64,000 nucleotides of DNA from an uncultured bacterium. Lineage in GTDB: Bacteria > Patescibacteriota > Patescibacteriia > Magasanikbacterales > GWA2-37-8. Under the pieces are notes generated by a model. That model was not told where the DNA came from and did not search any database. It worked only from the letters and a program-made list of their open reading frames with translations. Below, in pieces: positions 40,260 to 64,000 of this stretch (positions within the stretch are counted from its first letter, which is position 1; each line of letters starts with the position of its first letter). The DNA lies in the NCBI GenBank assembly GCA_937903605.1, contig CALCZC010000028.1, positions 70,680 through 134,679 of the forward strand. The letters run 5' to 3'. The position numbers were made by a program, and so were the translations under genes.

Positions 40260-42002
40260 ATGGCATTTTTTGCAAATCACAAAACAATTAAAAAACAAAA
40301 TTCCGATACTTATCGGCAATTTTTTGAAGATAATGATTTGGTGATTTCTACAGATGCTAATTTTTTTTGGGGTGGTGAGTATGGGGTGATGGACGGCGGG
40401 CCGGCGATTGTAAATCTTTTTCCGCGTAAAATTTTTTTAGGCATATCAAAAATTTCACAAAAAAAAGTGAAAGCTGATTATTATCAATATTATCAAAATG
40501 ATAAAAATAGGTTTAATGAATGTTCCGGCGATTTGTTTTTTGGTATATATGGCAAAGATAAATTTGATGTTTGGTACAAATATCTACTTTCTCAAGGGTT
40601 TGATTCCGGCTTAAAAATAAATATTTTAACCGAAGTCCCCTTAGATGTTTCTGCTGGCACTCAAGGAAATGTCGCTTATTTATTTGCTTTAGCCGGCTTT
40701 TTATTGCTTGAAAAAATAGAAAAGAGAGATATGGAAGAATGGAAAAATAAAAGTTTGGAATGGCGCTTGAAAGACGAAAATTTTTTGGAAGTTCTTTATT
40801 TTGCTTGGAGTCTGGAAGCTTTGTTTAATGGTTATAATGTTTCCGGGGTTCACAGCTTTACGGCATCACTTTTTGAAAAAGAGCCGGTAGTTTTTTTGAA
40901 AGATGGAAATGTACAACAAGACCTAAATAAATATTTAGAAAATAGTCGCATAAAATTTTCGGCTTTAAAATTAGATAGATTGGAAAGCGGATTAAATTTT
41001 GATACAGCCGTTATTTTTTCCGGAAAAACCAAAAAGACCGGACAAAATGTTTTGAAAAGTTTGCAAAATTTATACGAAAGAGAGGACTTTAAAAAAGAAA
41101 AATTGGTTTTTTTGAAAGAAAATGAATTTTTGGCGAAATCCGCAGAATATAATGAATTAAAAAGTAGTTATTTTGGTACAGCCAAAGCATTGTCTTGGGA
41201 AATAGTAGCTTCATTAAAAGATGTTTTGGAAAAAAACAAGAAAGCGGAAGAATATTTTTTTAATAGTATAAATAACTATCAAAATATCTTTTCTTTACTG
41301 GGTATTTTGGGAGAAGGGGATGTGTTAAATTATATTTACGAACAGTTGCGTGCTTTAAAAATAAATTTTAAACCCATAGGTTCAGGCGGTGGCGGGTCTT
41401 TACTTTTGGTTGATAAATATGGAGAGTTAGAAATAAAATTAGCAAGATTAGAAAAAAAAGTAAAAGAACAAGAGTTGGATTTGGAAATTTATTTTTTTTC
41501 CAATACAGATGGTTGGGAAATAGACGGACCAACGGTAGAACAGTTTTTATCAGTCGGCTCCAGAGCGGATCATATCAAAGGTAGAATTTTCAAAGGTTTT
41601 GTTTATGATTGTGCACAAAGTAAAAAAGAAGAAATAATTGCTACTGATTTTGAAAAAATTATCAAAGAAAACGAATTTGTTTTAGATCTGGATAATAAGA
41701 AAATATTTATCAAAGGCAAAAAAATAACTTCCAAAGATTTACATAGTGCCAAAGTAGCAGTAGAAATTTTAGAGAAATTGATTTTGGATGATTTTCATAT
41801 GATTACGGCGGAAAAAATAGAAACTTCTTCTTACCGGGATCGTTATGAAATACAGAGTAAGATTATTTCCCCGCTTATCAAATTGGTAAAAGAAAAGCTC
41901 GGCAAAAAAATGCCTTTGGAAATAAAAGGGGAGTTAAGTAGGTTTAATTTGAAATTGAGTAAAGCGAATTTGAAGATAGTTTTAGGGAAAGAGGTTTTAT
42001 AA
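40260..42002 (+). CDS. divergent GHMP-kinase-family-like protein (long, 580 aa)
   Basis: N-terminal STDANFFWGGEYGVMDGGPAIVNLF resembles the APGKxxLFGEHxVVYGxPAIA signature. PLDVSAGTQGNVAYLFALAG resembles motif 2 (PxGSGLGSSAA). KPIGSGGGGSLLLV resembles motif 3 (KxxGAGGGG). Confidence 0.45.
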   Translation: MAFFANHKTIKKQNSDTYRQFFEDNDLVISTDANFFWGGEYGVMDGGPAIVNLFPRKIFLGISKISQKKVKADYYQYYQNDKNRFNECSGDLFFGIYGKDKFDVWYKYLLSQGFDSGLKINILTEVPLDVSAGTQGNVAYLFALAGFLLLEKIEKRDMEEWKNKSLEWRLKDENFLEVLYFAWSLEALFNGYNVSGVHSFTASLFEKEPVVFLKDGNVQQDLNKYLENSRIKFSALKLDRLESGLNFDTAVIFSGKTKKTGQNVLKSLQNLYEREDFKKEKLVFLKENEFLAKSAEYNELKSSYFGTAKALSWEIVASLKDVLEKNKKAEEYFFNSINNYQNIFSLLGILGEGDVLNYIYEQLRALKINFKPIGSGGGGSLLLVDKYGELEIKLARLEKKVKEQELDLEIYFFSNTDGWEIDGPTVEQFLSVGSRADHIKGRIFKGFVYDCAQSKKEEIIATDFEKIIKENEFVLDLDNKKIFIKGKKITSKDLHSAKVAVEILEKLILDDFHMITAEKIETSSYRDRYEIQSKIISPLIKLVKEKLGKKMPLEIKGELSRFNLKLSKANLKIVLGKEVL

Positions 42003-49833: not shown

Positions 49834-52014
49834 ATGAAAAAAAAGCAAAAAACAACAACTAAATTCGACGTAGAAAAAGATGTTGAGCTATCCGACTTAA
49901 CTAAAGAAATTCTTAGCAATGAAATTTCAAAGTTTGACGAGTACCAGGCTTGGAAAAATTTTTTTGTCAGATATATCGATCCAGATGTTGTTCATAGAAA
50001 AAAAGATATAAAGGAGTTTGAAAGAAAATTAGGCGCTGATTTTTTTGAAATTCTTTATACAATTCATTTAATAGTTTATTTAGTTGCCAATAAATTTATT
50101 ATCCAAATACAAGTACCCGATAAATTTAATGTTTCGGAAGTTATATTTGAAAATGTTTTTAAAAATTTTTCTGAAGAATCTAAAAATAAGATTGATAAAA
50201 AAATTGGCGATTTATTTATACAATTGTGTAAAGAAAATCTACACGCATATGATCTATTCGAAAATATTTATAGAACTATTTCTCCAAGAGAGATAAGAAA
50301 ACCTTTGGGTGAATATTTTACCCCCCTTTCACTTGCAGAAAAAATGGTTTCCGAAGTGGATAAAAAATATTCTGATGAAAGATGGCTAGACAACTCAAGC
50401 GGATTCGGTGTATTCTTATTTGCATATCTTGATAAATTTGGAATTAAAAATATTGAAAAATTTAGTTGCATAGATGTAAATCCGCTATCTGTTTATGTAA
50501 CCAAGGTAGCTATTTTACTAGAGTACAGGACACAATTAAATAAAATAGCTGACCTTAAAATTTATTGGGGCGATGTTCTCTTAAACGAAAGATATGAGTT
50601 TAGAGATGGGAAAATATTGGTATCAGGTAATTTTTCTGAACTTCAAAGTAATGTTGGGGTTGTGATTGGCAACCCTCCATGGGTGAGCTGGAAATCAATG
50701 ACCAAAGAATATCAAAAACTGATTGGGGATGATTGGAGAAGTTACGATATTTTTGAGAAAAATATTACAAGAAAAACACTAGGGGCTTGTAATGATGATT
50801 TGTCAAGCTATTTTGTTTATTTCTCTATAGACAAATTTTTAAAAAAACAAGGATTACTTAAGTATGTGATAAATCTCTCTTTGTTCAAGAGTAATTTAGC
50901 AGGAAAAGAATTTAGAAAATTTAATATTCAAAAAACCAACACTCCTTTCAGAATTGAAAAAATTTATGATCTTTCAAATTATAAAGTTTTTCCCGGCATA
51001 GCCAATTCATACTGTGTTTTTGATGCGACCAAAGGCGAGAAAACAATTTTTCCAGTACCTTACTCAATCATTAATGGTAAAAAAGGCAAAGAAATAGAAA
51101 GCACTATAGAAACTGGCGCTCGACCAGTAAACAATCAAGACAATGGCGCTTTGATAACAATAAACGGCAACGACCAGCAGTTCGATTCTATTGAGGGAAT
51201 TTGTGAATACAAAGCACGGGCCGGCGTGTGTACTTGGCTCAACAGTGTTTATTGGATTAGAAAAATTGAGGATGCTGGTGAATTAACTTTGGTATCCAAC
51301 CTCGGGACTATAGGTAAAAAGAAAGTAGCAGAAATAGAGAATAAAATTGAAAAAGATCTAATATTTCGCTTATTAAGAGCAAGGAATCTTAATGATTTTA
51401 ACCCGGTAATTGAAAATTATATTATTGTTCCCCAACAAAAAGATGAAATGTCAAAGCCTATTGATGAAAAAGAAATGAAGGCAAAATATAAAAATACTTT
51501 TGTATTCTTTAAAAATTTCGAAAACGAATTAATAGAAAGAAGTGGCTATAAAAAGTTTTTAAAAGGACAGCCTTTTTATGGTCTTTATAATATTGGTCCG
51601 TATACAACTGCGCCCATAAAACTTGGTTGGCAGTTCGTATCTAAAAAATTTCAAGTTTATTTAATTGATAATGCGGAAGACATAATACCGGACCTAAATG
51701 TGATGTTTATCCCTCTAGAAGATATAAATGAGGCCTATTATTTGCATGCTCTTTTGAACTCTAAATATGCTACGAAAAAAATTGAATCAAGCTCTAACTG
51801 GACATTTCCAAGTGGGTCAATACAAAAAATATATTTAGAAAAATATAATTCTAAAGATGATCTTCACACTAGTATATCGTCATTACAGCAGAAGATTTTA
51901 TCTCAAAAAATAATCGGATTAGAAGAAGAAATGGAGAAACTATTTAAGGAATATTGGTTCAATGGGAGAAAAAAGAAGCGTGAAATTACCCAAATTCAAT
52001 TATCGTTTGTATAA
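49834..52014 (+). CDS. N6-adenine DNA methyltransferase, gamma class (Eco57I/TaqI-like) with a large target-recognition region
   Basis: Motif order X then IV: GEYFTPLSLAEKMV upstream of VIGNPPWVSW (NPPW catalytic motif IV), then a long TRD. 726 aa. Confidence 0.8.
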   Translation: MKKKQKTTTKFDVEKDVELSDLTKEILSNEISKFDEYQAWKNFFVRYIDPDVVHRKKDIKEFERKLGADFFEILYTIHLIVYLVANKFIIQIQVPDKFNVSEVIFENVFKNFSEESKNKIDKKIGDLFIQLCKENLHAYDLFENIYRTISPREIRKPLGEYFTPLSLAEKMVSEVDKKYSDERWLDNSSGFGVFLFAYLDKFGIKNIEKFSCIDVNPLSVYVTKVAILLEYRTQLNKIADLKIYWGDVLLNERYEFRDGKILVSGNFSELQSNVGVVIGNPPWVSWKSMTKEYQKLIGDDWRSYDIFEKNITRKTLGACNDDLSSYFVYFSIDKFLKKQGLLKYVINLSLFKSNLAGKEFRKFNIQKTNTPFRIEKIYDLSNYKVFPGIANSYCVFDATKGEKTIFPVPYSIINGKKGKEIESTIETGARPVNNQDNGALITINGNDQQFDSIEGICEYKARAGVCTWLNSVYWIRKIEDAGELTLVSNLGTIGKKKVAEIENKIEKDLIFRLLRARNLNDFNPVIENYIIVPQQKDEMSKPIDEKEMKAKYKNTFVFFKNFENELIERSGYKKFLKGQPFYGLYNIGPYTTAPIKLGWQFVSKKFQVYLIDNAEDIIPDLNVMFIPLEDINEAYYLHALLNSKYATKKIESSSNWTFPSGSIQKIYLEKYNSKDDLHTSISSLQQKILSQKIIGLEEEMEKLFKEYWFNGRKKKREITQIQLSFV

Positions 52015-52511
52015 ACCTCTTCGCCGTTTGTTTTTGCCCATTTTATAGTAAAACCCACGTGAGAAATATCGTTTGAACTGATTGATAATTGACGCTCGGT
52101 TTCTTTTAAAATATTTTCAGTTGGAACCTTATAAATTACTTTTATATCTAAAGGAGCTTCTTGTTTAAATACAGCACAATAAAAACAACTGTTTCTACTA
52201 ATTCTTAGTAGGGATTTTTTTTTCTTCTCTTCTGGACTTTTGAACATTCTGTCTAATTGAAAAGTTCCATTTTCCCAACAAGACAAATATTCATACAAGT
52301 TGCTAGGATTTTTTGGGTCCCAGGCGTCCGCTTCATGTTTTGTGGTATGGACTTCATGACCAAGGGCTGAGCCGATAATCAGTTCTTTGACTAGTCCTGG
52401 TTGGAATAAATTAGCATAACCCAAACCAGAAGCAATTTTTTGCGCCTCTTTTACAAGTGAGACAATTTGTTTTAATTTCTCTTGTTTTGTTTTGGTATCT
52501 ATTTTACTCAT
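51996..52511 (-). CDS. putative Type II restriction endonuclease (downstream of, and overlapping, the C-protein gene)
   Basis: Genomic context only: 4-bp overlap with the controller-like HTH gene and convergent with the MTase. Acidic/Lys residues (EADAWDPKN...E...K) are compatible with PD-(D/E)xK but no motif is secure. Confidence 0.45.
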   Translation of the reverse strand: MSKIDTKTKQEKLKQIVSLVKEAQKIASGLGYANLFQPGLVKELIIGSALGHEVHTTKHEADAWDPKNPSNLYEYLSCWENGTFQLDRMFKSPEEKKKKSLLRISRNSCFYCAVFKQEAPLDIKVIYKVPTENILKETERQLSISSNDISHVGFTIKWAKTNGEEVYTNDN

Positions 52512-52735
52512 AATTCTTTCATTAGTTTATCGATCTCAATTTTTAGTGCTTTGCTGATTTTTTCGATATTTTTTAAGGTTATATTTTTTTCTGCACGCTC
52601 AATCATGCCGATATATGTTCTGTGAACACCCGCTCGATTAGCTAATTCTTCTTGAGACAAACCTAACTCAGCACGTCTTTTGCGCAATTGTTGACCAAAT
52701 TTAATTAAGATTTCGGTCTTCATAAGAATAATCAT
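52508..52735 (-). CDS. XRE-family HTH protein, likely R-M controller (C) protein
   Basis: LRKRRAELGLSQEELANRAGVHRTYIGMIERAEKNITLKNIEKISKALKIE. 75 aa. Translationally coupled to the downstream ORF. Confidence 0.7.
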   Translation of the reverse strand: MIILMKTEILIKFGQQLRKRRAELGLSQEELANRAGVHRTYIGMIERAEKNITLKNIEKISKALKIEIDKLMKEL

Positions 52736-52956: not shown

Positions 52957-53080
52957 ACTATCAATCTATATATTGATAGTTATAAAAAGCTATTTATAAG
53001 TTGATATCTACAAATAACTATTTAAAAATTGATAGGTATAAATAGATATCTATAAATAACTATCATTATATTGATATTTT
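52957..53080. promoter_or_regulatory. cluster of operator-like palindromes and iterons (AACTATCAATctatatATTGATAGTT; GTTGATATCTAC; ATAGATATCTAT; ATAACTAT repeats)
   Basis: Direct reading. Upstream of the 53092 HTH gene and between the C-R operon and the surface-protein array. Confidence 0.45.
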
Positions 53081-53091
53081 AACGTATTTGT

Positions 53092-53304
53092 GTGAAAGTG
53101 GACGCAAAAAAATTCAGCGCCAATCTCAAGCGCTTGCGCTTGGGTAGGGGAATGTCCCAGGAGATGTTGGCGCGCAATGCGGATTTACGGCTTTCCAATT
53201 TAGCAAAATTGGAGGGTGGTTTTAACGTTAATCCGACTTTGCAAACATTATCGTCACTGGCACATGTTTTGACCGGGGACAGTATAGACAGGCTTTTACA
53301 ATAA
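53092..53304 (+). CDS. small XRE-family HTH regulator (GTG start)
   Basis: LKRLRLGRGMSQEMLARNADLRLSNLAKLE is a Cro/C1-type HTH. 70 aa. No clear RBS. Confidence 0.5.
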   Translation: MKVDAKKFSANLKRLRLGRGMSQEMLARNADLRLSNLAKLEGGFNVNPTLQTLSSLAHVLTGDSIDRLLQ

Positions 53305-53454: not shown

Positions 53455-54408
53455 ATGTTTATTGGAAAGAAAAAAAATTATTTTTTGATTGGATTGATTG
53501 TACTTGGGACAGTCTTGGTTTTGTTATCCTTAAATTCTAATGCCGCGACCCCTCCTTCTGTAATCAGTTATCAAGGTAAAATTTTGGAAAACGGAGTTTC
53601 AGCTTCCACCTCTTTGACTATGACTTTTGAACTTTTCAATACATCTACCGGAGGATCCGCACTTTATACATATACAGAAGCAATTGTTCCAAGTAGTGGT
53701 TTATTTTCTGTTTTGATAGGAGATAGTTTGATAAATCCACTAGATCCGGAAATTTTCAAAAACAATAGCGAACTTTATTTACAAGTAACAGTCGGTATAG
53801 AAACACTTTATCCACGTAAACGTATTGTTACCGTGCCTTATGCTTTCAATGCTAAATATTTGGACGGATATGGAGTTTCACTTACTCCAACCAATACAAA
53901 TTATATACCGGTAGCCGACAGTGATGGTGGATTTACTTTTGGCAATGTGACGACAACGGGGGATTTATATGTGAGTGGAACGGTGAGAGTAGGTGATATT
54001 TGTAGCAAGGATGGAAGTTTTTGTTTTAATATTGATGAATTAAATATAACAGTCAAAGAGATGCGAACCACTTCGGTTAAATATATAGGCAACGTAACCA
54101 CTACACCTTCTTTGAGAGGTTATCAAGCCGCCAATGCTATTTGTAATGCTTTTTGGAGCGGAAGTCATTTTTGCAAAACCGAGGAAATAATGACAATTAT
54201 AGAAAAACAAAATATAAATTATTTTTCCGGAACAGCTTGGTTGGCAAATGGACCTCCGGGTTATACTGCGCCAGCAAATGATTGTAGCGGTTGGACCAGT
54301 TCTGACGGAAATAGGTATGGTGCAATTTGGCAATTTAATAGCGATGGTGGTGGTAGTGGATATCTAACCACTTGCAACCAACCGCTGCCTTTGGCGTGTT
54401 GTAAATAG
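53455..54408 (+). CDS. membrane-anchored secreted protein carrying the shared Cys-rich C-terminal ...ACCK module (paralog 1, short)
   Basis: TM YFLIGLIVLGTVLVLLSL. C-terminal GYQAANAICNAFWSGSHFC...GPPGYTAPANDCSGWTSSDGNRYGAIWQFNSDGGGSGYLTTCNQPLPLACCK. Confidence 0.6.
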   Translation: MFIGKKKNYFLIGLIVLGTVLVLLSLNSNAATPPSVISYQGKILENGVSASTSLTMTFELFNTSTGGSALYTYTEAIVPSSGLFSVLIGDSLINPLDPEIFKNNSELYLQVTVGIETLYPRKRIVTVPYAFNAKYLDGYGVSLTPTNTNYIPVADSDGGFTFGNVTTTGDLYVSGTVRVGDICSKDGSFCFNIDELNITVKEMRTTSVKYIGNVTTTPSLRGYQAANAICNAFWSGSHFCKTEEIMTIIEKQNINYFSGTAWLANGPPGYTAPANDCSGWTSSDGNRYGAIWQFNSDGGGSGYLTTCNQPLPLACCK

Positions 54409-54479
54409 AAAACACTAATTTGAAAACACGAATTTTTACACTAATCAACACAGATAAACAAAAATAAAAAATACAAAGT

Positions 54480-54552
54480 GTCATCCCTGCGAAAGCAGGG
54501 ATCCAGGAAAAGTTAAACAAGCCACTGGATTCCTGCTTTCACAGGAATGACA
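54480..54552 (+). ncRNA. R5 structured element, copy 2, with compensatory substitutions relative to copy 1
   Basis: gtcatccctgcgaaagcagggatccaggaaaagttaaacaagccactggattcctgctttcacaggaatgaca. The CCCCGC/GCGGGG stem becomes CCCTGC/GCAGGG, and TCCGCC/GGCGGA becomes TCCTG/CAGGA. Confidence 0.4.
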
Positions 54553-54563
54553 AAAACAAAACT

Positions 54564-57500
54564 ATGTATTCACGAACAGTAACACAATTTGATCTGATGA
54601 TGAAAACGATAATGATCGTGTTGTTTGTGTTTGGTTTGTTCGTATTTTTTGTTGATGTTACCAAAGCCGCACAGTGGGTAAATAATCCGGCTAATTGTGC
54701 GACCCAATCTCCCGGTGGAGAAGTTGTTTGTCAAACAAGCGAAACTCCGGATTCTCGTGTTTGTGGGGTCAGCGGAGTTCAATATTATTGTTTTTCAAGT
54801 GTGGCTGTATTTAGCGCTCCTGGATATACACAAAATAATAATCAAAATAGAAGCGGTTTAGGTGGTGGTTATATTATGGATTGTGAAGCAAACGATGGCG
54901 TTCCGCCAAGTGGGCCATTTTGTGACAATAGCACAGCTTTTTGGTGCAATAGTGATGTTACTTGTAATGATAAATTTAGAATTACTCGATGTAGCTCTAG
55001 TAAATGGGCTTATGAAGCAAATGCTTTTTCTTGTACAGATTGTATTTCAACCAGATTGGATTGTAGTGGAGATGATGTGTGTGAGGTGGTAAAAGGTGCA
55101 ACAACTTCATCCACTGTTCCAAATGCAAATTATGGAAATACTTGTGATAGCGTTGTTTGTAAAAGTGGTTATGAAAATTGCAACACTAGCACCTTGGATT
55201 GGAGTGATGGTTGCGAAATACAATTTAATGTTAGTACTTGTACAACAGGCGGAGGTGAACCGGGAGTTTGGACAGCTTGCGGAGTTTGTACAGCTTTACC
55301 GCCAAAATATTTCTTGACTGCTAGTAATACGGATTATTATTCAGACAAACCACTTCTTTGGGGAACACAACTGGGAAATGGTGATCTTGTCAGTTTCAGC
55401 AACGCAACTTCTTCAAATATTTTTGTAGTGAAAAACGATGCTTCTGTGTTTATGAGTTCCACCTTAGCCACAACCACGGATAAATATTTTTATAATTACA
55501 ACGGAGATTTATATTGGGGTGATATGAAATTGGGAACTGGTGGGGGAGTAACATATACTGCTGGCAGTGGACTAAATTTAGCCGGATATGAATTTACCAT
55601 TGATACTTCTACTGATTTTAATTGGACAGGACAGCATACTTTTAATACAACTACGACATTTCCGCTTGGAGTTTGGGGCGCGGATGGCAGGGTTGGTATT
55701 GGTACAACTACCCCTACCTCTAGTTTATCGTTAGTGGTTGGTGATTATGATGGGATTACTTTGTTTGATGCTACCGGACAAATGGCAGCGGGCTTGGGAG
55801 CCGGTGGTAGTGCAAACGCAGGACTATCTTTGTTTAATCGTATTTCTGGTGATATGAGTGTTTCTTTAAATTCTGATTCTAATTCATATATAAATAATGA
55901 TTATAATTTTGGTATTGGGACCACAACACCGGATTATAAATTTACTTTAGATGGAGATGGGTTTTTTATGGCGAGAGGATTGACTCATAATCCAATTATT
56001 TATGGTTATCAAGGTGAAATATTGGGGCAAACAGGAGAAGGTTCTAGAACATTTTTTTATCCAAGAAAATCAGCTTTTAGAAGTGGTGTAATTACTGATA
56101 TGTCAGTATTTGGTATGGCTTTTGGTTATCCATTTTCAAATGAAGTTGATCAATGGGATGATAATAATATTGGCTCGGCTTCTTTTGCAGCTAATGTAAA
56201 TAATAAAGCCAGTGGACTTTCTTCAGCGGCTTTTGGAACACACAACATTGCTTCAGGGACATCTTCTTTCGTGGGCGGTGGTAATGCTAATGAAGCCGCT
56301 GGATTAACCTCTATAGTTTTAGGCGGAACCGGTAATTTTGTTGGAGCTGAAGGATCAGGTATTGTAGGTGGTTGGTCAAACACTTCAACAGGTTTTAGTG
56401 CTTTTATCGGTGGTGGTAGATATAATATAACTTCAGGTGATTACTCTTTTATTGGTGGTGGTAGATATAATGTAGCTTTAAGTGATTATTCTGTTGCTTT
56501 TGGTAGTTATATGACGGTTTCCGGAACAAATTCTTTTGGTATAAATCTTTTTGGTGGTGGTATTTCTTCTACTCTAGCTCAAGATAATACTTTTGCAGTT
56601 ATGGGTGGAAATGTGGGGATTGGAACAACTACTCCGCAGCATACATTAACTTTGGCCGGAGATTTTGATATTGCTGAAAATGGCCTGTTAAAATTTAACG
56701 GAATTTCAGGTTCTGTTGATCAAGTTATCAAAATAAACACCTCCGGTTTTCCAGAATGGGTGGATGTTGATTCTCTTTTCATAAACAATACAACATTTAA
56801 TAGCAGCACCGAGTTTAACAGCACCAGCACTTTTAATAGCACCGCGATTTTTGAAGGGCCTTCATATTTCAATAATGATGTTTTTGTCAGCGGAACAATT
56901 TCTTCAACCAATTTATATGTAAATGGTAACAGTACAACAACCGGTGATCTGTATGTTCTCGGTCAAGCTATATTTCACGATATTTTACCAGCGGATAATT
57001 TAGCTTATGCGATAGGAACTTCTACGTTTGTTTGGAAAGAAGGTTGGTTTGGAAAAATATTTACTCCGGAAATTGATTTTACAAATAATTGGAAATTATC
57101 TACTACGACCGACGGAGGATTGGTATTTACTAGCTCTACCCAAGTGGCGTTGGCGATACTTTCTACCGGACAAGTGGGAATAAATACTACAACAATAGAA
57201 GCGAATTTAAAGATTAAGGTAGATGGAAATATTGGTTCCAAACTATATTGCGATGTAAATGGAAATAATTGTTTTGATCCGAACGCTTTCGGCTGGGCCA
57301 CTCCTCAAGCTAGATATATGAATACCACAACTGCTAATTATAATGGAAATTTTGGTAGTTTTCCGGCGGCTAGTGGGACAATTGGTTATGAAGCCGCAAA
57401 TCATATCTGTAGCTCTACGGTTGGTGTTGGTTATCATATTTGTCAGGCAAATGAAATTTTGGATATTATCAGAATTTATGGCACTAGCACGTTTGCCAGT

Positions 57501-57689
57501 AAAACAAACGGATGGGTAGCAAATGGTCCTCCAGGGTATGTCACGGTATCTACAAATGATTGTGAAGGATATACCACCTCTACCGTTAGTTTTTATGGAG
57601 CATGGTGGAAATTTAACGACAGTAGTGGTGGAGGAAGTGGAAAAATGACCAATTGCAGTACTCTCCAACCAATAGCGTGTTGTAAATAA
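54564..57689 (+). CDS. large secreted surface protein (paralog 2): signal anchor, Cys-rich N-module, Gly-rich tail-fibre-like repeats, shared C-terminal ACCK module
   Basis: N-module GGGYIMDCEANDGVPPSGPFCDNSTAFWCNSDVTCNDKFRITRC ... TCTTGGG. Repeats of type SFVGGGNANEAAG / YSFIGGGRYN. Motif MGGNVGIGTTTPQ. C-term GYEAANHIC...GPPGY...NDCEGYTT...GAWWKFNDSSGGGSGKMTNC...IACCK. 1041 aa. Confidence 0.65.
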   Translation: MYSRTVTQFDLMMKTIMIVLFVFGLFVFFVDVTKAAQWVNNPANCATQSPGGEVVCQTSETPDSRVCGVSGVQYYCFSSVAVFSAPGYTQNNNQNRSGLGGGYIMDCEANDGVPPSGPFCDNSTAFWCNSDVTCNDKFRITRCSSSKWAYEANAFSCTDCISTRLDCSGDDVCEVVKGATTSSTVPNANYGNTCDSVVCKSGYENCNTSTLDWSDGCEIQFNVSTCTTGGGEPGVWTACGVCTALPPKYFLTASNTDYYSDKPLLWGTQLGNGDLVSFSNATSSNIFVVKNDASVFMSSTLATTTDKYFYNYNGDLYWGDMKLGTGGGVTYTAGSGLNLAGYEFTIDTSTDFNWTGQHTFNTTTTFPLGVWGADGRVGIGTTTPTSSLSLVVGDYDGITLFDATGQMAAGLGAGGSANAGLSLFNRISGDMSVSLNSDSNSYINNDYNFGIGTTTPDYKFTLDGDGFFMARGLTHNPIIYGYQGEILGQTGEGSRTFFYPRKSAFRSGVITDMSVFGMAFGYPFSNEVDQWDDNNIGSASFAANVNNKASGLSSAAFGTHNIASGTSSFVGGGNANEAAGLTSIVLGGTGNFVGAEGSGIVGGWSNTSTGFSAFIGGGRYNITSGDYSFIGGGRYNVALSDYSVAFGSYMTVSGTNSFGINLFGGGISSTLAQDNTFAVMGGNVGIGTTTPQHTLTLAGDFDIAENGLLKFNGISGSVDQVIKINTSGFPEWVDVDSLFINNTTFNSSTEFNSTSTFNSTAIFEGPSYFNNDVFVSGTISSTNLYVNGNSTTTGDLYVLGQAIFHDILPADNLAYAIGTSTFVWKEGWFGKIFTPEIDFTNNWKLSTTTDGGLVFTSSTQVALAILSTGQVGINTTTIEANLKIKVDGNIGSKLYCDVNGNNCFDPNAFGWATPQARYMNTTTANYNGNFGSFPAASGTIGYEAANHICSSTVGVGYHICQANEILDIIRIYGTSTFASKTNGWVANGPPGYVTVSTNDCEGYTTSTVSFYGAWWKFNDSSGGGSGKMTNCSTLQPIACCK

Positions 57690-57713
57690 TTAATAAGTTA
57701 TAAAGCAAACAGT

Positions 57714-59615
57714 ATGCGATTAAAAGCTAAAACAACAATGAAAATAAATTTCTTGGTCAAAATGATAATGATCGTGTTGTTTGTGCTCGGCGCATTTGTA
57801 TTTTTTGTTGATATTTCCAAGGCGGCTGAATCTGAATGGAAAAATAATCCCGCTGAATGTAGCACTAAACTTGGTGCTGTGGAATGTTCTAGCGGATATA
57901 GAATTTGCGGGGTATTTAATAATTCCGGTTTGTGTTTTACTCCGATGACAAGAGAAAGATTATCCTCAACCAATGATGGTTTGTCACAAACAAGGTACTC
58001 TCCTTCTTTTGGTGGCGGTTTTATTTTAGATTGTAATGCAACTGTTACACAAACAAAAGGGGAAACCGAACCACATTGTAATAATTCTAATACAATTGGA
58101 GTAAACAGTCTTTGGTGTAATGCTAGCACCACTTGTTCGAATGATCATGTGTTAACTAGATGTTTTGCCGGAATTTGGGAAGGACAATCCGGATCACACG
58201 AATGTGTTGTTCCGGGGATGACTCCTACGACTACCGGATGTGTGAGTGGTTATGCAAATTGTAATTTAGGAGAACCAAATAGCCCTATTGACCCCAGTGA
58301 TTGTGAAGTTAGAATCGGTTTTACTACATGTACAGGCGCTGGTGGTTTGCAAGGAACTTACAATGCTTCTTGTCAATGTGTAGTTGCGACCTCCACATTT
58401 GTTACTGGTGTACAAACACATTTTGCCACTTCTTCACCCCTCCTTTGGGGGACACAATATGGAGATGGTGATCTTATAAAATTTTCAAAAAACAATATCT
58501 CCACCAATACCTTTATGGTAAAAAATGACGGCTCGGTGGGAATAGGAACAGATTCATTTGATAGTAATGTCGCCGCTTTGGTTGTATCTTCTACCAGTAA
58601 AGGAATTTTAATTCCAAGATTGACCGTCAGTCAGAGAGACGCGATTAGTGGAGCGCCGGAAGGCTTACTGCTTTATAATATGGATGATCATGAATTCAAT
58701 TATTATAATGGCTCGGGATGGGAAAGTGTTGGTAAAACTTATTCCGCTTCTAGTACCGGTGGTTTAAATTTAAGTGGAACAAGTTTTTCGGCTAATGTTG
58801 ATAATTTGACAATTGAAATTTCCGGAAGTAATCAATTGAAAGTAAAATATGATCCGATTTTCTTTGCGACAAACACTACTGGTTTGACATTTATGTACGA
58901 CGATGGATTCTTTGCTACCAGTAGTTTTGGTTTAATGCTCAAAGATATGGGTGTTGTCAGTAGTACCTATGGGAGCGAAAACACAGCGGTTACTTTGGGT
59001 ATTGATAATTATGGTCGAGTATATTTCGTCGCTACAAGCGCTATTATGATTGGAATAGAAAATATTACGAATTCATCTTCTCTGGCAAGAGTTGATATGG
59101 AAAACACTTTCACCTCGCCGACGATTTTCAGCGCCAGCACGACATTTAATGCGACGACAACTCATAATGCTGGGGTAAGAGCGAATTTGTATTGTGATTC
59201 TTCCGGAACGAATTGTTTTGATCCGAGTTTGGGTTGGGTTACTACGGTTCTTGACGTAACAACCACACCGGCTACAACAACAGGTTCATTTACCTTTACA
59301 ACAGGAACTCTACGAGGATATCAAGCAGGAAATGCAATTTGTAATCATTATTATCCAGGATATCATTTCTGTTTTAGTGGAGAAATAATTTCTTATATAA
59401 GAACGGCTTCCAATATTAATAAATTTGCGGGATTGCCTCAAGCATGGATATCTGAGGGTCCGCCAGGATTTACTTCTGATTCAAATGATTGCGGTGGATA
59501 TACCACGGCTGACTTAGAACCTCTGGGAGCATTTTGGGAATTTGATAGTGATGGTGGTGGTAGAGGTTGGCTATCTACTTGTGGTTCAGCAAAAAATATT
59601 GCTTGTTGTAAATAA
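57714..59615 (+). CDS. secreted surface protein (paralog 3) with the same N- and C-terminal Cys-rich modules
   Basis: MIMIVLFVLGAFVFFVDISKAA signal. GGGFILDCNAT...WCNASTTCSNDHVLTRC. TTGCVSGYANCN...DCEVRIGFTTCTGAGGLQGTYNASCQCVV. C-term GYQAGNAICNHYYPGYHFC...GPPGF...NDCGGYTT...GAFWEFDSDGGGRGWLSTCGSAKNIACCK. 633 aa. Confidence 0.65.
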   Translation: MRLKAKTTMKINFLVKMIMIVLFVLGAFVFFVDISKAAESEWKNNPAECSTKLGAVECSSGYRICGVFNNSGLCFTPMTRERLSSTNDGLSQTRYSPSFGGGFILDCNATVTQTKGETEPHCNNSNTIGVNSLWCNASTTCSNDHVLTRCFAGIWEGQSGSHECVVPGMTPTTTGCVSGYANCNLGEPNSPIDPSDCEVRIGFTTCTGAGGLQGTYNASCQCVVATSTFVTGVQTHFATSSPLLWGTQYGDGDLIKFSKNNISTNTFMVKNDGSVGIGTDSFDSNVAALVVSSTSKGILIPRLTVSQRDAISGAPEGLLLYNMDDHEFNYYNGSGWESVGKTYSASSTGGLNLSGTSFSANVDNLTIEISGSNQLKVKYDPIFFATNTTGLTFMYDDGFFATSSFGLMLKDMGVVSSTYGSENTAVTLGIDNYGRVYFVATSAIMIGIENITNSSSLARVDMENTFTSPTIFSASTTFNATTTHNAGVRANLYCDSSGTNCFDPSLGWVTTVLDVTTTPATTTGSFTFTTGTLRGYQAGNAICNHYYPGYHFCFSGEIISYIRTASNINKFAGLPQAWISEGPPGFTSDSNDCGGYTTADLEPLGAFWEFDSDGGGRGWLSTCGSAKNIACCK

Positions 59616-59620
59616 AATAA

Positions 59621-62600
59621 TATGAATATTCAGAAAATGGTACAATTTATTTCTTTTAAAAAAGCATTCTTTATTGCTTTGCTTGTATTTAGTTTTTCAA
59701 TAATTTTTGTAGATTCTGCAAAAGCCGCTGATTGGAAAAAAACCCCAGCCCAATGTCCCAGTGTATATGAAGGATACGGTCAAACCGGCGGTCCGGGAGA
59801 GGGTATGTGTGGTGTGTTGGGTAATACAGCTTTATGGTTTAGTACTTCATCTTTAGTGCTGTTAGTACCAACTGTTTCTACAAACACCAATAATACACCA
59901 GGAGTAAATTTAGGAGGATATGTTGTTGATTGCCATGCTTACGATGCAAGCCCTTTGCCAGACGGTCCTTTTTGCGATAATAATACAAATTTTTGGTGCA
60001 GTCCAGATCCATCTTGTAATAGTTTATATGTAAAAACAACATGTAATGCAAGTAAGTGGGCAATTGATTCCGGTGCTTTTACTTGTGTTACTCCTGGGGC
60101 AGCTCCCTCAACCACTGGGTGTATTAGTGGTTATGCAAATTGTAATATAGGAACTTCTGATCCTAATAATTGCGAGGTAAGAATAGGCGTTACAACCTGT
60201 ACCGGAGCCGGAGGTTTGCAAGGTACTTTCAATGCTTCCTGTGACTGTATTGTTCCGGCCTCTAATTTTAGAACTGGAATTCAAGCTGAATTTTTAACTT
60301 CTTCGCCTTTACTTTGGGGTAAACAATACGGTGATGGCGATCTAATCCGTTTTACAAATAACAAAGTTTCTACTTCTTCATTTGTAGTTTTTAATTCCGG
60401 ACAAGTTGCGATTGGACATAATATAAATGTTTCTACCACTTCCGTGGCGTTTGAAGTTTCGTCAACCCAGCGCGGTATCTTAATTCCGAGATTAGGCGGA
60501 ACAAATCCTATTACAAATGGCGTAGATGGTGAATTATATTACAATACAACATCAAAAAAATTCATGTATTACAATGGTCTTGCTTGGGGTGAGTTGGGTA
60601 GTGGTGGGTCTTCTTGGGTAACCACAACTTTATTGTCTGTTTCAGGTAATGCTACAGGGCTTTATCCAGCAGGAACAGTTTCTACTACGATTGGTATTGG
60701 AAGCACGGGTACGGATATTTGGTTACAAACCAGTAGTACTCCGAGATTATACGTAGCGGAAAATGGGAATGTGGGGATTGGGACGACTTCGCCTCAAGAA
60801 AAATTATCAGTGGTGGGGAATATTTCGAATTTAATAACAAATCAATCCGGAGTAGGTCGTATTTCTTTTGTTAATTTAACTGTTGGAAGTGTTGGAGATT
60901 ATGGTATATATTCTATTGATGTTTCTGGTCGTTATGCTTATGTAGGTGGTCCTGGATTAGGATCAACAGCCGCAAATTTTTCAATTATAGATATAAATGA
61001 TATTTATAATCCAGAGCCAATTTTTACCACTTCTGGTTTTGCAACTTATCTCAGAGATATAAAAGTAGCGGGGAAATATGCTTATTTAGGAAGAGGAACA
61101 TCAAGTGGCAATTTTAAAATATTAGATATTTCTAATCCTAAAAATCCTGTAGAAATATCCTCATCTACGTTTGGTACTAGTTTGCGCACTTTAGAAATTG
61201 TTGGCAACTATGCATATGTTGGTAATAATGCAAGTTCAAATAATTTTAGGATTATTGACATTTCCAATCCACGTAGTCCAATAAATATCTCAACAATAAC
61301 TATCGGTAGTACAGTTATTAATTCTATACAAATTGTTGGTAATTATGCATATATAACAAATATTCAAGGAGCAAATAATTTTAGTGTTGTTGATATCTCT
61401 GATCCGTATAATCCAATAAATATTTCAACAATAACCGCTGGTCTTTATAGTATTTATTCTGTCCAGGTATCGGGTCGGTATGCTTACATAGGGAATGGCA
61501 CAGGAGCAGCAGATAATTTTAGAATAATTGATATTTCTGATCCATATAATCCGGTAGTAACATCGACCTTGAAGGTTGGTAGCGCTAGTATTACGTCTAT
61601 AAAAATTTCTGGTCGTTATGCTTATATAGGAAGTTTTGCAACTACCGATAATTTTCACATAGTTGATATTTCCAACCCATCTTCTCCAATAAATATTTTT
61701 TCCGATAGTATTGCTGGAAGCAATGTTAGAGCTGTAAATGTGTCGGGTCGTTATGCATTTGTTGGAACCATGACTCAAACAAATGGAACTTTTAATATAA
61801 TTGATATTTCAGGAACAGAAGTTTCTTCTCTTATTGCGCACTCATCAGAAATCGGCAATTTACAAGTTCGTAATAACATTATCACACAAGGTATTGGTCA
61901 ATTTGGATCTCTTAATGTTGGTGCTGGAGGCTTACTTGTAAATGGGTCTTTGTCAGTGAGTGCCACGAATAGCCCATCTTATTTTGGAGGAAATGTTGGA
62001 ATTGGAACAACTTCTCCAATTTTTAAATTAACTCTTGGTGAAGATGGTGGTATTTATTCCGCTTGGCCAGATTATACTCCTCTTGGTTCATTGGAAGGGG
62101 CTGTTTTACCTTCGACTTCGTCTGGAACATTGATGTTTTGGTATCCGCGTAAAGCCGCTTTTAGAGCTGGTGTTATGGATAGGTCTCAACCAAACAGTGA
62201 TGCCTGGGATGAATCTAATATAGGTCTGTTGTCGTTTTCTTTTGGTGGTAATAATGTCGCTTCAGCCACTGGAACATTTGTAGTCGGAGGAGCCAATACA
62301 TCTTCAGGGCAATATTCATCAATTACTGGTGGTACATTTAATAATATAACGGGAAATGTTTCTTTTATTGGCGGTGGTTTTACTAACACCATTTCTTCAG
62401 GAAACTCTGCTATTGGCGGAGGATCTTATAATACTATTTCTGGTGCCTATTCATTTATTGGCGCTGGTAGAGATAATGTTGCTTCAGGATACGCTTCTTT
62501 TGTAGGGGGCGGTCGCAATAACACATCTTCAGGACAATATTCAGTTTCGTTTGGTTATGACAATGAAGTATCTGGTAACTATTCTTTTGTTAGTGGTCAG

Positions 62601-64000
62601 ATGAATGAAGTGAGCGGGTATAATTCTGTGGCATTTGGAAACAAAATGAATGTTAGTGGTGCTTATTCTTTTGGTATAAATTTAGAACCAGACGATGAGG
62701 GAGGTGTTGTTAATTTGTCAAATGATAGAGTTTTGGCAGTTATGGGCGGGAACGTGGGGATTGGGACCAGTAATCCTCTTGCGAAATTATCTCTTGATAA
62801 CGATGGTTCAATTTTAGCTCAAGGAACCTCTGGATCTGGTTGGAATGGTGGAACTCTTGGCGCTGGGTCTAGAATGATGTGGATAGCGAGTAAAGGTGCT
62901 TTTAGGGCGGGTAAAACTTGGGGAACAAATTGGGATACAACTAAAATAGGTTTTAATTCTATTGCTCTTGGTGAGGATCATTTAGTAACAAGCTCTTTTG
63001 GATTTGCTGCTGGGGGTAGAAGTCATGAAATAACAGGGGATTCTTCAGTTGTAATAGGTGGAGAAAATAATATTATTTCTGATAGTAATTCAGGTATTAT
63101 TGCTGGTTGGAATAATATTATATCAGATAGGTATTCTGTTATTTCTGGTGGTCAGGATAATTTAATTTCAAATGAATTTTCATTTATTGGTGGTGGTACT
63201 AACAACACTGTTTCAGGAGCTGGTTCTGTAATATTTGGTGGTTATAACAACACTGTTTCAGGAAATTATTCTTCTGCTTTTGGTTATAATATGAATGTTT
63301 CGGGAGGTTATTCTTTTGGTATTAATGTTAGTACTACAGCTGCAACACTTTCTCGAGATAATACCATTGCTTTGATGGGAGGTAATGTGGGGATTGGGAC
63401 GACCTCGCCACAATCTTTATTGGATGTATCTGGCGACAGTGCTACAATTAGAATTTCAGATCATTCTTCCACAAGAATACCAGCATTAATTTTTATGAGA
63501 GGTACTAGTACTGTATTTGGAGAAGATATTTGGACAGATTGGAAAATTGAAAATAATTCTGGTGAGCTTAGGTTTAGTGCTAACGCAAATGGAGTTTCTA
63601 CAACATCTTTATATTTAGGTTCATCAGGTAAGATAGGTATGAATACTATTCCTTTAACCTCGCTACACCTTGCTGGTGATGGAGCGATTTTGGCGACAGG
63701 AACTTATGGATCTGGCTGGGATGGAGGATCTCTTGGTGCAGGAACAAGATTGATGTGGATACCAAGTAAAGGTGCTTTTAGAGTAGGATATGTGAATGGA
63801 ACAGAATGGGACGAGACGAATATAGGCGCTTACTCTGCGGTTTTTGGTTATAATAGTTTAGCATCAGGCAGTCGTTCTTTTATTGGCGGTGGTTATAATA
63901 GTAGTGTAACTGGAAATTATTCCTCTGTAATTGGAGGTTTTAATAATAAGGTTGCAGGTGCAAATTCATTTATTGGTGCAGGTTCAAGTAATTTTGTTTC
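59621..64000 (+). CDS. giant secreted surface protein (paralog 4), 5' portion only (frame stays open to the window end; over 1450 aa in window)
   Basis: Not in the ORF track because no stop falls in the window. Signal MNIQKMVQFISFKKAFFIALLVFSFSIIFVDSAKAA. Same Cys-rich N-module (GGYVVDCHAYDASPLPDGPFCDNNTNFWCSPDPSCNSLYVKTTC; TTGCISGYANCNIGTSDPNNCEVRIGVTTCTGAGGLQGTFNASCDCIV). Seven LVIVD-type repeats (RYAYVGN...NNFRIIDISNP). Many Gly-rich YSFIGGGxNNxVSG repeats. Recurrent MGGNVGIGTTSPQ motif. Confidence 0.6.

Follow-up and report, generated by a model that had tools for sequence, protein, structure and literature searches.

The MAT fibres of Bdellovibrio bacteriovorus stand on the surface of the predator and bind glycans of the prey by means of swappable tips, one of which is a lectin-fold variant, and their N-domain is thought to be proximal to the cell (PMC10769870). 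One subclass of these fibres is defined by S74, which is the self-cleaving intramolecular chaperone of trimeric phage tailspikes (PMC10769870). Apart from type IV pili and a small number of adhesins described from Saccharibacteria in culture (PMC10633639, PMC12206443), little is known of the means by which the Patescibacteria (CPR) recognise and hold their hosts. The epibiotic growth of cultured Saccharibacteria requires several glycan-binding adhesins (PMC10633639). Here we have analysed a stretch of 64,000 nucleotides from an uncultured bacterium of the Magasanikbacterales (contig CALCZC010000028.1, positions 70,680 to 134,679; the window), which ends in an array of four same-strand genes, p1 to p4, in the order p1-p2-p3-p4. 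We consider it reasonably probable that these genes encode Sec-exported, elongated and probably trimeric fibres, built like phage tail fibres and MAT fibres and carried on a Patescibacteria chromosome, and that the fibres serve for recognition of and adhesion to the surface of a host or partner cell.

The four open reading frames proposed by an earlier reading of the letters without database searches (the sequence-only reading) were confirmed, and their features are as follows, in positions of the window.

53455-54408, forward strand: p1, 317 aa; putative signal peptide, MAT_N-like beta-rich domain (aa 29-142), short stalk, neck with C183 and C190, and tip (aa ~201-317) ending ACCK; taken as the cassette's canonical short fibre.
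54055-54405, forward strand: C-type-lectin-like (endostatin-like) tip of p1; hmmsearch E 1.6e-48, fold predicted from the p3 model.
54564-57689, forward strand: p2, 1041 aa; putative signal peptide, Cys-rich N-module (aa 1-289), stalk and lectin-like tip (57294-57686).
57714-59615, forward strand: p3, 633 aa; putative signal peptide, N-module (57723-58523), PTL_trimer segment (PF26696; aa 273-340, 58530-58733), stalk, two-Cys neck and lectin-like tip (59235-59612).
59622-64000, forward strand: p4, 1459 aa open to the end of the window, where it is cut; complete in contig L001.
59622-60389, forward strand: N-module of p4, after a putative signal peptide and followed by a PTL_trimer segment.
~60900-61900, forward strand: LVIVD beta-propeller of p4 (Pfam).
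62282-62681, 63011-63326 and 63842 onward, forward strand: three blocks of 15-aa beta-roll repeats in p4 (repeat scan).

The relationship between the genes is far beyond chance by BLASTP (E 1e-29 to 5e-80). Over ~180 aa the C-termini of p1, p2 and p3 are 35-40% identical (E 1e-29 to 1e-38), the N-terminal parts of p2, p3 and p4 (250-470 aa) match one another with E 3e-47 to 5e-80, and hidden Markov models (HMMs) of the three module types match only these four genes within the 64-kb window. The sequence motifs quoted in the sequence-only reading were all found in the array proteins. Its description of the genes as four paralogs has to be amended: the modules are shared, but p1 and p4 represent a gene pair found across the CPR and p2 and p3 are chimeras of both. 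The same array occurs in independent assemblies. Contig L001 (ENA ERZ724082) shares 16,287 nt with the window at 100% identity and runs past its end, p3 is present on seven ENA and Logan contigs, three of which were examined as loci and have the same neighbouring genes, and syntenic arrays exist in two other species, L004 and L005. Since the arrangement recurs in independent assemblies, the array is real and an assembly artefact, which would have removed the claim of a tandem array, is excluded. The intergenic gaps p1/p2, p2/p3 and p3/p4 measure 155, 24 and 6 nt, and because the gaps are short at least p2, p3 and p4 are probably co-transcribed; a scan for promoters and terminators was uninformative (29 promoter-like sites against 28.6 expected). 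Read-through of the stop codons from p2 to p4 was also considered, as the three genes lie in the same frame with single stops between them, but about one-third of the gene pairs elsewhere share their frame by a hand count, and the idea was dropped because this is the level of chance.

The C-terminal module, which forms the tip of p1, p2 and p3, has 12 invariant alignment columns, and the six Cys residues recognised from the letters are among them; the invariant or near-invariant columns comprise GY, GPPG, NDC, W and the six Cys. Just upstream lies an additional conserved neck with two Cys (LYCD..G.NCFDP). The guess of a C-type-lectin-like fold agrees with our fold searches, in which the model of the p3 tip can be superposed on solved C-type-lectin-like domains (CTLDs), Link or endostatin domains, and a structural similarity to the tip of Bd2740, a Bdellovibrio MAT fibre, is found at an identity of only ~14%. 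On this model the module is a divergent family in the endostatin-like branch of the CTLD superfamily rather than a new fold. The canonical disulfide of CTLDs links helix 1 to the last strand; in the tip the invariant C40 lies in a predicted helix (32-43) and C128 and C129 in the last strand (124-129), and the tip is presumably stabilised by three disulfides, with a pairing that is likewise predicted. Variability between tips concentrates in loops 62-73 and 93-100, the second of which falls in the ligand-binding 'long loop' region of CTLDs. No conserved EPN or QPD tripeptide, which together with WND are the Ca2+/sugar motifs of true C-type lectins, is visible in the columns of the tip alignment.

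In sequence databases the module is essentially unannotated. No match was found in Pfam, NCBIfam, PHROGs or PDB sequences with a single sequence or with a profile of 59 sequences (nothing below E 1 for the PDB profile), and no Pfam family was found on the tips of p1-p3 or on 8 full-length relatives. When the 59 tips were scanned singly the only recurring Pfam model was DUF1554, in three of them and without significance (best E 0.033), and p3 gives a weak match to a PHROG 'virion structural protein' (E 1.6e-4). Word-indexed homology searches with single modules returned almost nothing, and an exhaustive profile search of 1.84 billion representatives was used instead; it yielded 1072 proteins at E<=1e-3 (representatives at 50% identity), 778 of them at E<=1e-10. 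Judged by the loci described below, the family is almost entirely of CPR origin, in agreement with the restriction that had been put forward for checking, and the module is nearly always at the extreme C-terminus, with (A/S)CC(K/R/Q) as its usual ending. Every member named by its source is a 'hypothetical protein', and no prior description of the family was found in the literature. The novelty claimed for the module thus holds for its sequence family and not for its fold, which belongs to a known superfamily. A kinship between the tip and the N-module was considered and rejected (hhalign probability 0.2%).

All four proteins look from their letters like substrates with cleavable Sec signal peptides, with small residues at positions -3 and -1; the putative cleavage sites of p1 to p4 lie after SNA, TKA, SKA and AKA, each followed by Ala. 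Of the signal anchors seen by the sequence-only reading the export signal stands, and an anchor is the less likely form of it. Behind the signal peptide, the N-domain of p1 matches the NCBIfam model Bdello_MAT_N with E 4e-6 and 26.6 bits, below the 60-bit cutoff, and at E<=1e-3 the same model is matched by 16 of 43 p1-type relatives, none of which reaches the cutoff. This pattern points to a consistent remote homology to MAT_N and not to curated membership. The N-module of p2, p3 and p4 opens with (Y/N)W(V)xNPxxCP...FPGQNC...ICG, continues with GGY..DC...CDN..(F)WC and one to three C..GY..C(D/N)...GCE(V/I) repeats, and ends in PLLWG.Q.G.G.L; p2 has an extra C..GY..C...CE repeat. As the sequence-only reading had supposed, the N-module carries no annotation. 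It has no Pfam family, also in the newer precomputed annotation, and no significant PDB match, the only resemblance in the PDB being a non-significant one to the C-terminal half of the CD23 CTLD (E 0.2).

Between the terminal modules the larger proteins are repetitive. The PTL_trimer segment (PF26696), found in precomputed annotation on p3 and p4, lies just after the N-module and reads GSVGIGT...KGILIPRLT..QR.AI...GLLLYN...YYNGSGW. Gly-rich repeats with a period of 15 aa (45 nt) match the beta-roll models LbR_Ice_bind and YadA_head, and the stalk repeats of p2, p4 and relatives match YadA_head, LbR_Ice_bind, Ata and BimA models. The stalk of p2 combines GNVGIGTT motifs with 15-aa beta-roll repeats (~56231-56507). 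LVIVD repeats had been ascribed to the large paralogs in general; they were detected only in p4, where Pfam LVIVD (PF08309) gives E 1.6e-35 and 120.6 bits against a cutoff of 20.2 over six matched stretches, and not in p2. The DNA repeat families D6 and D9 are spaced by 135-138 nt.

The 3' end of p4, which is missing from the window, was obtained from L001, where the protein has 2008 aa counted from the ATG of the window and is called with 2003 aa. The ACCK ending, for which p4 was to be checked, is absent from its C-terminus. Beyond the window p4 has a Peptidase_S74 domain (E 9e-9), whose SDxxxK motif reads SDINLK and lies at aa 1652 in the 2003-aa numbering, and then (L001:16900-17935) a beta-rich domain of ~200 aa and a Pro/Glu-rich acidic tail (PEIPPEPPIEE...). 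The p4 orthologue of L005 has Peptidase_S74 with E 1e-12 and a similar tail. Cleavage by S74, if it occurs in p4, would free the whole piece that follows it.

The distribution of the genes was studied in 47 loci, taken from one genome per GTDB species and located with peptide patterns of alignment A3, which bias the sample to tips with AWIAEGPPG; A3 is narrower than A2 and A4, whose diversity was too great for scanning loci. Most of the 47 loci are labelled Patescibacteria (Magasanikbacteria, Falkowbacteria, Peribacteria/Peregrinibacteria, Parcubacteria, Saccharibacteria, Absconditabacterales, Shapirobacteria and Staskawiczbacteria); the others are five bins labelled only 'bacterium' and six with other labels, some of them short contigs and possibly mis-binned. 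The loci closest to the window are L004, a Magasanikbacteria metagenome-assembled genome (MAG) with an IF-2 of 71% identity, and L005, an unclassified Patescibacteria MAG with an IF-2 of 85% identity, and both have the order IF-2, thioredoxin, array seen in the window, which therefore stems from a related Patescibacteria genome. In 42 of the 47 loci the next gene after a lectin-tipped gene, read from the same strand, begins with the N-module. The match of this next gene to the N-module HMM spans nearly the whole model in most of these loci, with E values from 1e-16 to 1e-47 except for L049 (4e-9), and its length is often above 1900 aa wherever the 6-kb flank is long enough to show it. Among 128 complete representatives of the tip family, 42 have the p1-type N-domain and only 10 the N-module. 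Because the pairing holds in 42 of 47 loci and the upstream partner is usually of the p1 type, the core unit is p1 plus p4. Chimeras that combine the N-module with a lectin tip were seen in few lineages only (L004, L005 and L010).

Further observations were made at some of these loci. Ten of them, several labelled Parcubacteria, have just upstream of the lectin-tipped gene a protein of ~650 aa with FN3/Pur_ac_phosph_N-like repeats (for example L006:2760-4724 and L035:275-2227), which may be a third member of the cassette. A 45.7 kb contig labelled Candidatus Woesearchaeota archaeon (L042:5632-11200) encodes a 246-aa protein with a signal peptide and a lectin tip ending LMCCG, overlapped by an N-module protein of 1611 aa, and the same contig also encodes an archaeal-type aIF5B (GTP_EFTU_D4 domain); the pair suggests either a transfer between CPR and DPANN or a mis-binned or chimeric contig.

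Sliding identity profiles against close relatives reveal mosaicism. Compared with p3, the protein P0177 has 96-100% identity in N-module and stalk, except for a single block of 50 aa at 70%, and falls to 58-78% in the tip. P0002 is 90-100% identical at both ends, again except for that block, and only 51-64% in the stalk. P0158 shares only the stalk (84-96%), and in L005 a chimera joins a p2-like head to a p3-like tip. The breaks of the identity profiles at tip and stalk argue for exchange of segments, the pattern expected of receptor-binding fibres. The tip module is also found on tail-region proteins of three phage contigs in IMG/VR, which carry genes for a major head protein, a head-tail adaptor, a tape measure and tail fibres; hmmsearch gives E 1e-35 and 3e-29 with all Cys conserved, and one of the tip proteins also has tail-fibre PHROG matches and GNVGIGTT motifs. 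The module is absent from the 50,697 GenBank phage records searched and from cultured phage genomes. The tail-fibre-like Gly-rich, modular and diversified character ascribed to the proteins in the sequence-only reading is borne out by the repeat models, the tips on phage contigs and the identity profiles alike. The IMG/VR tip proteins L051:7248-8363 and L053:2376-4175 have in addition signal-peptide-like N-termini, and that of L053 runs on past ACC into a Cys/Trp-rich domain of ~200 aa, by eye like the Fibrobacter 'major paralogous' domain.

The remaining window is ordinary bacterial chromosome (RecG, a ClpB-type AAA+ chaperone, PheT, DnaE, IF-2, RNase Y and tRNAs), and the array is flanked by IF-2 and thioredoxin upstream and by an RCC1-like protein and a class-I tRNA synthetase downstream. 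Two further elements lie between thioredoxin and p1.

49834-52726: Type II restriction-modification (R-M) island; it comprises a 726-aa methylase/endonuclease fusion resembling Eco57I, an endonuclease with a weak likeness to PvuII (E 6e-4) and an HTH_3 protein as controller.
53098-53304, forward strand: small helix-turn-helix (HTH) gene, 68 aa, GTG start; labelled XRE-type from the look of its sequence.

The R-M island, which had been linked to the array by position, is a strain-specific insertion between thioredoxin and the array; as the syntenic L004 and L005 both lack it, a functional link to the array is rejected. The small HTH gene has an 86%-identical copy in the same slot of L005 (thioredoxin, HTH, p1-like gene) and none in L004. 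It immediately precedes p1 and is a candidate for local control of the fibre genes. AT-rich repeats, called iteron-like in the sequence-only reading, occupy 52960-53080 between the R-M controller gene and the small HTH gene. The thioredoxin was considered as a dedicated disulfide catalyst and rejected, as it is an ordinary cytoplasmic TrxA (WCGPC) without a signal peptide. Just beyond the end of the window (L001:18119-19846, minus strand) the gene convergent to p4 encodes a 575-aa protein of RCC1 repeats (beta-propeller), before the gene of the class-I tRNA synthetase. Elsewhere in the window an open reading frame of 580 aa (40260-42002) lies downstream of the gene for a PAS histidine kinase and matches nothing in Pfam at E<=1e-5.

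We propose that the Sec pathway exports the array proteins with removal of the signal peptide and that the chains then trimerise, a step in which S74 would chaperone the folding of p4 before cutting itself off at the serine of SDxxxK. The base module that follows the signal peptide, MAT_N-like in p1 and a putatively disulfide-rich N-module in p2-p4, would be proximal and hold the fibre at the cell surface. A repetitive stalk would follow, made of GNVGIGTT/PTL_trimer segments, 15-residue beta-roll repeats and, in p4, the LVIVD propeller. At the distal end p1-p3 would present the compact lectin-like tip as ligand binder and p4 the S74 chaperone. In this mechanism the tips would most probably recognise and adhere to surface molecules, glycans or proteins, of the host or partner that carries the episymbiont. 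The ancestral unit would have been a gene of the type MAT_N-like to lectin tip followed by one of the type N-module to giant fibre, from which recombination in this lineage would have made p2 and p3. A more far-reaching version, which we regard as doubtful, is that the short fibre with a lectin tip and the giant N-module fibre form a two-component host-recognition apparatus of episymbiotic prokaryotes, across Patescibacteria and at least one DPANN-labelled contig, with tip swapping with phages setting the host range. The lectin tip might then dock on the N-module as a jointed fibre, or the two might act as primary and secondary receptor binders.

Several points weigh against the proposal of adhesive fibres. 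The link of p1 to MAT_N is sub-threshold (26.6 bits against the 60-bit cutoff), and p2-p4 are without that domain. The case for adhesion is a computational one, in which surface display, trimerisation and the ligand are predicted. No cell-wall anchor, lipobox or transmembrane segment was identified in the array proteins, so that release rather than display is possible. That the tip scaffold is so strictly conserved, and likewise the gene pair beside housekeeping genes, would also be compatible with a structural role in the envelope instead of host-specific adhesion. If the proteins were fibrils of this kind, associated with an S-layer or the wall, their function would be in integrity or shape of the cell, and the target of the lectin-like domain would be wall polymers of that same cell and not a host. 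The large, repetitive proteins, the retention of the pair across very distant CPR classes beside housekeeping genes and the 12 invariant columns of the tip are all in keeping with it. We nevertheless judge this explanation unlikely, as copy number, architecture and length vary greatly between relatives (176 to >2100 aa), tips and stalks are swapped between close relatives as is typical of receptor-binding proteins under diversifying pressure, and the tip module is common to phage tail proteins.

This last observation could be taken to mean that the array genes are themselves tail fibres of a prophage, a tailocin or another phage-derived particle, the more so with an S74 chaperone in p4, PTL_trimer and tail-fibre-like repeats, and the weak PHROG 'virion structural protein' match on p3. 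However, no phage structural, packaging or lysis genes lie beside the array, where PHROG matches are negligible, the location on the chromosome is unchanged in L004 and L005, Sec-type signal peptides can be read from the letters of all four proteins, and no match exists in the 50,697 GenBank phage records, which makes a phage particle very unlikely. A secreted depolymerase or predatory effector, in which p4 would be a tailspike-like enzyme acting on the capsule or wall of a host and p1-p3 would target it, has only a slim chance in our estimation. S74 chaperones classically accompany endosialidases and other polysaccharide-degrading tailspikes according to the family description, and the LVIVD propeller has no known function; yet scans of p1-p4 with Pfam, NCBIfam and PHROGs revealed no catalytic domain of a glycosidase, lyase or peptidase, and the S74 fibres among the MATs are adhesive and not enzymatic (PMC10769870). 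Finally, the tips might be targets of a diversity-generating retroelement (DGR), for which their CTLD-type fold at the extreme C-terminus would be suited. DGRs are common in CPR and act on CLec folds, which counts in favour. The 64-kb window, however, has no template-repeat-like copy of any tip-coding region, the only matches being the paralogs at 66-80% identity, no long near-identical repeats, and no reverse-transcriptase-like open reading frame, matches to YxDD falling in DnaE and two open reading frames unassigned to a family; the tip sequence moreover ends in invariant Cys residues and not in a variable region. We hold a DGR to be extremely improbable.

With adhesive fibres as the preferred explanation, the locus points to a large family with 1072 representatives, a defined fold, a two-gene core and module swapping, in an architecture like that of the fibres with which Bdellovibrio recognises its prey and of phage receptor-binding proteins. 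Should the fibres indeed serve adhesion, the genes are clonable candidates for determinants of host range across the CPR, the presumably disulfide-bonded tips of ~120 aa being the most obvious ones. Comparative genomics also gains a marker cassette in the gene pair. As there are homologues in MAGs labelled Saccharibacteria (L029 and L032), a test would be possible if cultured, genetically tractable strains carry the cassette. Should the two-component version be true, the cassette would be the main determinant of which hosts these ultra-small cells can live on.

The likeness to described systems is closest for the MAT fibres, for example Bd2740 (C-type-lectin tip, PDB 8oks) and Bd3182 (S74 type), which have a signal peptide, a base domain, a long stalk and a swappable C-terminal tip. 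The array corresponds to both the S74 subclass (p4) and the non-S74 subclass (p1-p3), each with the expected C-terminus, an SDxxxK S74 or a tip domain; p1 and 16 of the 43 family members match Bdello_MAT_N, tips are swapped in a mosaic manner, and the bearers of both systems live on or in other bacteria. It differs in that the MAT_N match stays below the NCBIfam cutoff, p2-p4 have a Cys-rich N-module not found in MATs, the tip belongs to a six-Cys, endostatin-like family with ~14% identity to Bd2740, the genes form a conserved adjacent pair or array, and the trimer state and surface location of the array proteins are predicted. The tip itself resembles the endostatin domains of collagen XV/XVIII (PDB 1dy2 and 1dy0) at ~11% identity without a significant sequence match, and DUF1554 (PF07588) of Leptospira is the only Pfam model recurring among family members (E>=0.033 in 3 of 59, non-significant). 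We take these families to have in common one Cys in helix 1 together with another, C-terminal, in the last strand, whereas the overall Cys pattern of the array tip differs (six invariant, ending CC), as does its context, a bacterial fibre tip against collagen NC1.

Among phage receptor-binding proteins, those that bear S74 (tailspikes of the endosialidase type and tail fibres) and Mtd of Bordetella phage, which has a CLec fold, share with the array the SDxxxK of S74, the GNVGIGTT/PTL_trimer segments and modular exchange, and the tip module itself occurs on the tail-region proteins of three uncultivated phage contigs; the array genes differ in being chromosomal, with putative signal peptides, no virion genes nearby and no DGR in the window. 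Trimeric autotransporter adhesins (YadA, Ata and BimA) have in common with p2 and p4 the 15-residue Gly-rich beta-roll repeats, but the matches cover the repeats only and the array proteins have no autotransporter beta-barrel anchor. Patescibacteria are generally described as lacking an outer membrane. The claim that the modules are novel accordingly stands as far as their annotation goes and has to be narrowed for the overall design, which parallels the Bdellovibrio MAT fibres described in 2024 (PMC10769870). What is already known is the kind of system, phage-fibre-like adhesive trimers with S74 or lectin tips; what is new are two unannotated modules, their spread across the CPR, the two-gene core, its chimeric expansion, and the sharing with phage contigs and a DPANN-labelled contig.

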